A stretch of DNA of 39,245 nt from IMG/VR virus record IMGVR_UViG_2558860161_000002; one strand, written 5' to 3'. The position numbers and the translations under genes are program-made. Source of the DNA: a virus (Duplodnaviria; Heunggongvirae; Uroviricota; Caudoviricetes). The notes below the pieces were generated by a model. It had not been told where the DNA came from and did not search any database. It was given only the letters and a program-made list of their open reading frames with translations. Of the stretch, positions 26,705 to 27,250 are shown piece after piece. The first letter of the stretch is position 1. The number at the start of each line of letters is the position of its first letter.

Positions 26705-26730
<26 letters not shown>

Positions 26731-27250
26731 TCAGCAACCCCGGTATCAGTTCATCCAGCGCGGCTGCTTTGTTCATGGCTTTGATGATATCCCGTTTCAG
26801 GAAATCAACATGTCGGTTTTCCAGTTCCGGAAAACGCCGCTGCACCGACAGGGGGATCCCGTCGAGAATACTGGCAATTTCACCTGCGATCCGCGACAGC
26901 ACGAAAGTACAGAATGCGGTTTCCACCACTTCAGCGGAGTCTCTGGCATTTTTCAGCTCCTGTGCGTCGGCCTGCGCACGCGTAAGTCGATGGCGTTCGT
27001 ACTCAATAGTCCCTGGCTGGAGATCTGTCTCGCTGGCCTGCCGCAGTTCTTCAACTTCCCGGCGCAGCTTTTCGTTCTCAATTTCAGCATCCCTTTCGGC
27101 ATACCATCTTATAACGGCGGCAGAGTCATAAAGCACCTCATTACCCTTGCCACCGCCTCGCAGAACGGGCATTCCCTGTTCCTGCCAGTTCTGAATGGTA
27201 CGGATACTCGCACCGAAAATGTCAGCCAGCTGCTTTTTGTTGACTTCCAT
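26705..27250 (-). CDS. Nu1: terminase small subunit Nu1
   Basis: 181-aa ORF MEVNKKQLADIFGASIRTIQNWQEQGMPVLRGGGKGNEV... with helix-turn-helix N-terminus, ends ...[10 protein letters not shown]. Confidence 0.95.

Follow-up and report, generated by a model that had tools for sequence, protein, structure and literature searches.

Replacement of the GTG start codon by GTA in the terminase large-subunit gene A of a lambdoid Escherichia coli prophage

The decay of prophages through point mutations and IS insertions is commonplace. Unusual initiation codons may also be conserved, as in E. coli infC, where an AUU start is kept in orthologues and has a regulatory role. The described elements with which we compared the locus reported here are phage lambda, phage PhiR42_1 (PV340562.1) and a prophage of E. 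coli KMi029 (NZ_CP147109.1). In the phage reference annotation, the gene of interest is named "terminase DNA packaging protein A" and has a GTG start. PhiR42_1, a complete phage genome record, combines Qin-type early and accessory genes with lambda-type lysis, head, and tail genes. KMi029 is the nearest complete genome, with a prophage 99.98% identical to ours. The DNA that we analyzed, here called the window, is the whole 39,245-nucleotide IMG/VR record IMGVR_UViG_2558860161_000002, a lambdoid prophage adjoining ydfJ', ynfT, ydfK, and pinQ in E. coli. Both the ydfJ/ydfK/pinQ locus and the Qin-type accessory genes are present, and the element appears to be a Qin-type (Qin-like) cryptic lambdoid prophage.

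With lambda, the window shares the gene order cos, Nu1, A, W, B, a 26-nt overlap of Nu1 and A, an A frame of 641 codons, and the Pfam domains of its product, and the nucleotide identity is about 98% over a 1-kb segment comprising cos, Nu1, and the 5' part of A. The two differ at the head of A, where lambda has a GTG start and Glu at Nu1 residue 175, whereas the window has GTA and Lys. The features of this region are the following.

27428..27439, minus strand: intact cosN with its 12-nt cohesive-end sequence, GGGCGGCGACCT; it lies upstream of Nu1.
26705..27250, minus strand: terminase small subunit Nu1, 181 aa, intact, with E175K (ORF table, Pfam).
26731..26733, minus strand: in-frame TGA immediately 5' of the A start position (sequence and ORF table).
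26728..26730, minus strand: GTA at the GTG start position of gene A (sequence; lambda alignment).
24805..26730, minus strand: frame of the terminase large subunit A, 641 codons plus stop, otherwise intact (gene-by-gene comparison, Pfam).
26548..26550, minus strand: ATG, codon 61, the first canonical start of the A frame (ORF table).

The A frame, which ends with the stop codon at 24807-24805 (minus strand), lies downstream of cos and overlaps Nu1 in the manner of a lambda-type terminase gene. A Pfam search with the 641-codon frame placed GpA_ATPase (PF05876) at residues 47-285 (172 bits) and GpA_nuclease (PF20454), the C-terminal endonuclease domain, at residues 322-600 (251 bits). By its placement, size, domains, and nucleotide identity, the window A appears to belong to the lambda gpA family, and the one thing it lacks is a start codon that could be used where the conserved frame begins.

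Read in the A frame, the minus strand runs ...CTGA GTA AAT ATA TCG AAC AGT CAG GTT AAC AGG CTG CGG CAT TTT. The derived base, the A that closes the GTA codon, corresponds to a T on the plus strand (position 26728). Across 151 aligned nucleotides, lambda, PhiR42_1, and PhiR34_1 differ from the window solely at this third base of the start codon, G in all three phages and A in the window. The preliminary description had deduced that the lambda start should be GTG and that a G-to-A difference had turned it into GTA, and the alignment bears out both points. It had also reported that the frame is open from 26730, right behind the TGA, and offers no ATG, GTG, or TTG ahead of codon 61 (the ATG at 26550); we counted 641 codons without a single internal stop, and the ORF table agrees on the first canonical start. 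Because the TGA directly precedes the start position, no upstream alternative start is possible, and because it abuts the GTG in the relatives as well, GTG is the sole possible start of the conserved A frame. Nu1 codon 175 begins with the same base; the reference phages have Glu (GAA) there, and the window has Lys (AAA). The 3' end of the Nu1 frame reads GGG TTG CTG AGT AAA TAT ATC GAA CAG TCA GGT TAA on the minus strand; the change at the Nu1 C terminus had been noticed at the outset by comparison with the lambda sequence, and the lambda residues given there proved correct. What we describe in gene A is a single-base state and no statistical pattern.

To survey this codon in other genomes, we used a 55-nt query centered on the site with 27 nt per side, such that every 28-nt megablast seed had to span it. 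The GTG version of the 55-mer is found at 5,637 places in 3,746 of the 5,426 complete E. coli genomes in RefSeq, and the GTA version has no match in any of the 5,426. Neither IMG/VR nor the GTDB representative genomes (one per species) contain the exact GTA 32-mer. With the codon masked as NNN, the same pattern yielded 35 genome loci and at least 120 viral contigs, to which four fetched phage loci were added. Among the matches listed, all 159 fetched loci (genome, viral, and phage) carry GTG, and ATG, TTG, or other variants at the A start occur in none of these 159. At least 1,000 contigs encode the wild-type Nu1 of the same haplotype. Across thousands of copies, the start codon of lambda A is effectively always GTG. 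It had been conceded from the start that functional relatives might also carry GTA, in which case the codon would have lost its significance; GTG was present in every case examined, whether phage record, viral contig, or genome locus. Genes of the infC type likewise have a triplet other than AUG, GUG, or UUG at the expected translation start. Unlike them, the window A has a private, derived GTA on an invariant GTG background, and among the copies examined the codon is not conserved in orthologs.

The same searches also matched the lambda Nu1/A junction exactly in assemblies of unrelated bacteria (loci L005-L037), including Marinifilum, Tardiphaga, Kitasatospora, Chryseobacterium, Bradyrhizobium, Paenibacillus, Enterococcus, and others, where the contigs are short or of low coverage. 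The junction was also found in contigs of about 48.4-48.5 kb from Shewanella canadensis and two Pseudomonas assemblies. The presence of the lambda junction in unrelated bacteria looks like contamination by lambda control DNA.

The exact Nu1-K175 protein is recorded for E. coli KTE73 (EOV79120.1 / WP_016242141.1) and is encoded in three NCBI assemblies: GCA_000408465.1 (E. coli KTE73), GCA_014332015.1, and GCA_043392985.1. All three contain GTA at the A start together with a frameshift in the portal gene B, and over ~6 kb they match the window at 100% identity. In KTE73, the contig is a 1.92-Mb scaffold that also carries an IS1 in cspI, as the window does, and KTE73 is the probable source of the window. 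Since the same base is present in three assemblies from different projects, the GTA allele is real and inherited and not a read error.

Besides the start of A, the window contains further lesions in genes essential for the particle, as well as several IS elements and rearrangements.

23003..24605, minus strand: portal gene B, inactivated by one additional G in a G run (GG to GGG at 24178-24180; +1 frameshift), with a stop at codon 148 (PhiR42_1 alignment).
17310..17732, minus strand: gene G, coding for the tail assembly chaperone, in which codon 50 (17583-17585) is TAA in place of GAA (alignment).
29493..30260, no strand assigned: IS1, 768 bp, in cspI, in the late operon between the lysis genes (Rz) and Nu1 (IS1 Pfam families).
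1..3709, no strand assigned: IS1 end at 1-94, inverted segment at 95-2940, and full IS1 at 2941-3709, abutting the 3' part of pinQ.
38940..39245, no strand assigned: end of an IS5-family element in the early region, with the transposase C terminus on the minus strand (NCBIfam).

The additional G in B and the ochre codon in G each recur, among the 5,426 complete E. coli genomes, in KMi029 only, where RefSeq labels the genes "frameshifted" and "internal stop," respectively. Codon 50 is the sole difference from PhiR42_1 across the whole of gene G, and the ochre also truncates the G-T frameshift fusion product. Three IS1 copies are present, one of them cut by the left end of the window. The copy in cspI is absent from KMi029 and PhiR42_1, and the PhiR42_1 coordinates overlap by ~9 bp at both of its junctions (target duplication); it may be polar on the head genes and reduce their transcription. 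The inverted segment at 95-2940 holds the 5' part of pinQ, ydfK, ynfT, and ydfJ', and pinQ is divided between an inverted 5' part at ~104-308 and a 3' part at 3709-4094; this IS1-bounded inversion splits pinQ at the prophage/host junction. No integrase gene was found within the window. Judging from the lesions in B and G, the prophage was almost certainly unable to make particles before the start of A was lost.

The IS5-family insertion point lies inside or beside ydfW by comparison with KMi029. We also asked whether the element at the right end is the IS5-family copy of MLI104K1, whose prophage copy is slightly further removed than that of KMi029; the two gave no match, and it was NCBIfam that identified an IS5-family transposase C terminus. 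An apparent TTG-to-TTA change at the start of gene I was traced to an annotation artifact in PhiR42_1, as the window has an ATG-initiated ORF of 223 aa at 11980-12651.

PhiR42_1 is collinear with nearly the whole window at 95-99.9% identity and shows the intact form of the element. In contrast to the window, it has a GTG start of A, intact B, G, and pin, an integrase, and no IS1 in cspI. Window positions 628-1408 align to both ends of the PhiR42_1 record (1-783 and 47888-48668), which appears to carry a terminal duplication of ~780 bp.

The KMi029 prophage has nine substitutions relative to the window, including the one at GTA. The two share the neighborhood ydfJ', ynfT, ydfK, and pinQ along with relBE, hokD, ydfU, Q, essD, rrrQ, cspI, and nohA, and in both, B is frameshifted, G has the ochre codon, and an IS1 occupies the same pinQ junction. 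Their A genes are identical except for the start-codon base, and this base is the one difference between the window and KMi029 in 10.2 kb; KMi029 has kept GTG and is annotated with an intact 641-aa terminase. Where the window has the inversion, KMi029 has an IS1-adjacent deletion of the 3' part of pinQ and tfa, and the inversion and the deletion are best read as two outcomes of one ancestral IS1 insertion. Four lesions of the window were not found in KMi029: the missing start of A, the cspI IS1, the IS1-bounded inversion, and the IS5-family insertion at 38940. MLI104K1 has GTG and intact A, B, and G, and its early region is full of IS elements. Since KMi029 has the B and G lesions but retains GTG, the loss of the A start came later. 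Most parsimoniously, the common ancestor would already have had the pinQ IS1, the frameshifted B, and the ochre codon in G, and the window lineage would afterward have lost the A start and gained the cspI IS1, the inversion, and the IS5-family element. Over ~37 kb, only about three or four substitutions are derived in the window lineage, one example being position 8210 in lom codon 82, where Tyr82 (TAC; KMi029, MLI104K1) has become Ser (TCC).

We consider it very probable that gene A has undergone neutral pseudogenization in an already defective prophage, after the loss of its start through a single G-to-A change. The transition removed the GTG initiation codon of A in the Qin-like prophage of a small E. 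coli lineage. With the TGA before it and no ATG, GTG, or TTG until codon 61, no useful synthesis of full-length gpA would be expected. As portal B and chaperone G had been lost and the pinQ IS1 gained beforehand, the loss of A was most likely selectively neutral, which we infer from the order of the lesions. Given the prior lesions in B and G and the prior IS insertion, the A start loss is an unremarkable late step of decay and poses no translation puzzle. The identity of A with that of KMi029 outside the start codon fits a very recent mutation and is no proof of neutrality. A helper lambdoid phage supplying B and G in trans could in principle mean that the loss of A is not strictly irrelevant.

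A different view is that terminase acting on an intact cos is harmful, so that the start loss was favored as an early, host-driven "disarming" of the element, or, in a weaker variant, that a trickle of terminase from GUA or AUA persists; we regard this as very unlikely. Positive selection for terminase loss as such, in which a knockout of A spares the host chromosome from cos cutting upon late-gene expression, we hold to be hardly probable. The cosN sequence does sit intact 700 bp upstream of A, Nu1 is still intact, and the allele persists in several isolates, although one small clade only carries it. In favor of this reading, Q, S, and R also match their PhiR42_1 counterparts completely, with Rz (RzpQ) at 99.6% identity; against it, the IS1 upstream of Nu1 in the late operon may already lower transcription. 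Thousands of resident copies retain GTG with an intact A, including the equally defective KMi029 and the IS-riddled MLI104K1, and selection for terminase loss must therefore be weak or absent. Nor is it improbable that one of some three or four derived substitutions per ~37 kb should hit a start codon or create a stop by chance.

Neutral loss of the start also has to be weighed against the use of another initiation codon. The ORF from the ATG at 26550 (24805..26550) encodes 581 aa, and the complementarity to a Shine-Dalgarno sequence upstream of this ATG is weak. The M61 product aligns to GpA_ATPase only from profile position 19, with positions 3-18 lost, and it would lack the beginning of the ATPase domain as well as the 60 conserved residues at the N terminus. 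In 54 distinct relatives or haplotypes, the variable sites of A codons 10-60, a range chosen because it lies beyond the Nu1 overlap, are distributed 15/9/44 over codon positions 1/2/3, and the N-terminal protein sequence has long invariant stretches. One relative among the 54 has M61I; with Ile at this position, M61 is not conserved as a start. These patterns argue that the upstream 60 codons of A are translated in working relatives and that the N terminus matters. Genetics from the Feiss laboratory reportedly assigned the TerS-binding part to the extreme N terminus of gpA ("48 N-terminal residues"), and gpA residue Y46 is said, from work of the same laboratory, to be ATP-reactive. Our literature search found no explicit statement that the gpA N terminus binds gpNu1 or that Y46 is ATP-reactive. 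Reviews describe the C-terminal region of lambda TerS as binding TerL (PMC9611059) and place the packaging ATPase in the N-terminal domain of TerL (PMC7229814), a location also given in PMC4856287. A PDB search with the A protein found no solved structure, and the role of the first 60 residues can therefore not be read from a structure.

The near-cognate codons in the A frame are ATA (codon 3) and CTG (codons 11, 22, and 54). Close to the start of the frame, a GGGG run is the only stretch resembling a Shine-Dalgarno sequence, and its duplex with the anti-Shine-Dalgarno sequence is predicted at -6.2 kcal/mol, equal for GTA and ATA. According to Hecht et al. (bioRxiv 10.1101/063800), AUA, AUC, AUU, and CUG initiate at 0.02-3% of the level of AUG, and the remaining codons, including GUA, which is no near-cognate of AUG, at 0.01-1%. 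GUA, the AUA of codon 3, or the CUG of codons 11 and 22 may support trace initiation, and we infer that full-length gpA would be present in trace amounts at best and not be made at a useful rate. The public gene calls for the GTA allele start A at codon 3 in two cases and at M61 in another.

L162, 3527-5446: A called from codon 3 (ATA), 639 aa.
L164, 2767-4686: A called from codon 3 (ATA), 639 aa.
L163, 3053-4798: A called from M61, 581 aa.

Both the 639-aa and the 581-aa calls look like annotation work-arounds and are not likely to be real products. We think it distinctly improbable that initiation at GUA, or at the codon-3 AUA with the same GGGG element, provides enough functional terminase. 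Small amounts of terminase would suffice, the GGGG element is intact, and the measured rates quoted above are not zero; two of the gene calls also begin at codon 3. However, the ATA lies 13 nt from the GGGG run, compared with 7 nt for the native start, and the uniform GTG of the other phages, viral contigs, and genomes examined offers no indication that a functional phage can tolerate GTA. In addition, the portal and chaperone G cannot be made, which leaves nothing to select for residual terminase.

Finally, a sequencing or assembly error in which a true G was miscalled as A, as the absence of GTA from 5,426 complete RefSeq E. coli genomes and its being the only base that differs from the nearest genome in 10.2 kb might suggest, is largely refuted and almost certainly not the explanation, because three NCBI assemblies from separate projects have the same base and the same B frameshift, the change is a substitution and not a homopolymer length difference, and the accompanying B and G lesions are independently present in KMi029.

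The loss of the A start codon departs in nothing from known biology and is ordinary prophage gene decay. Its importance is small beyond annotation, in which A of E. coli KTE73 and related strains should be labeled a pseudogene. Within these bounds, the locus documents ordered decay in one vertically inherited Qin-like prophage.
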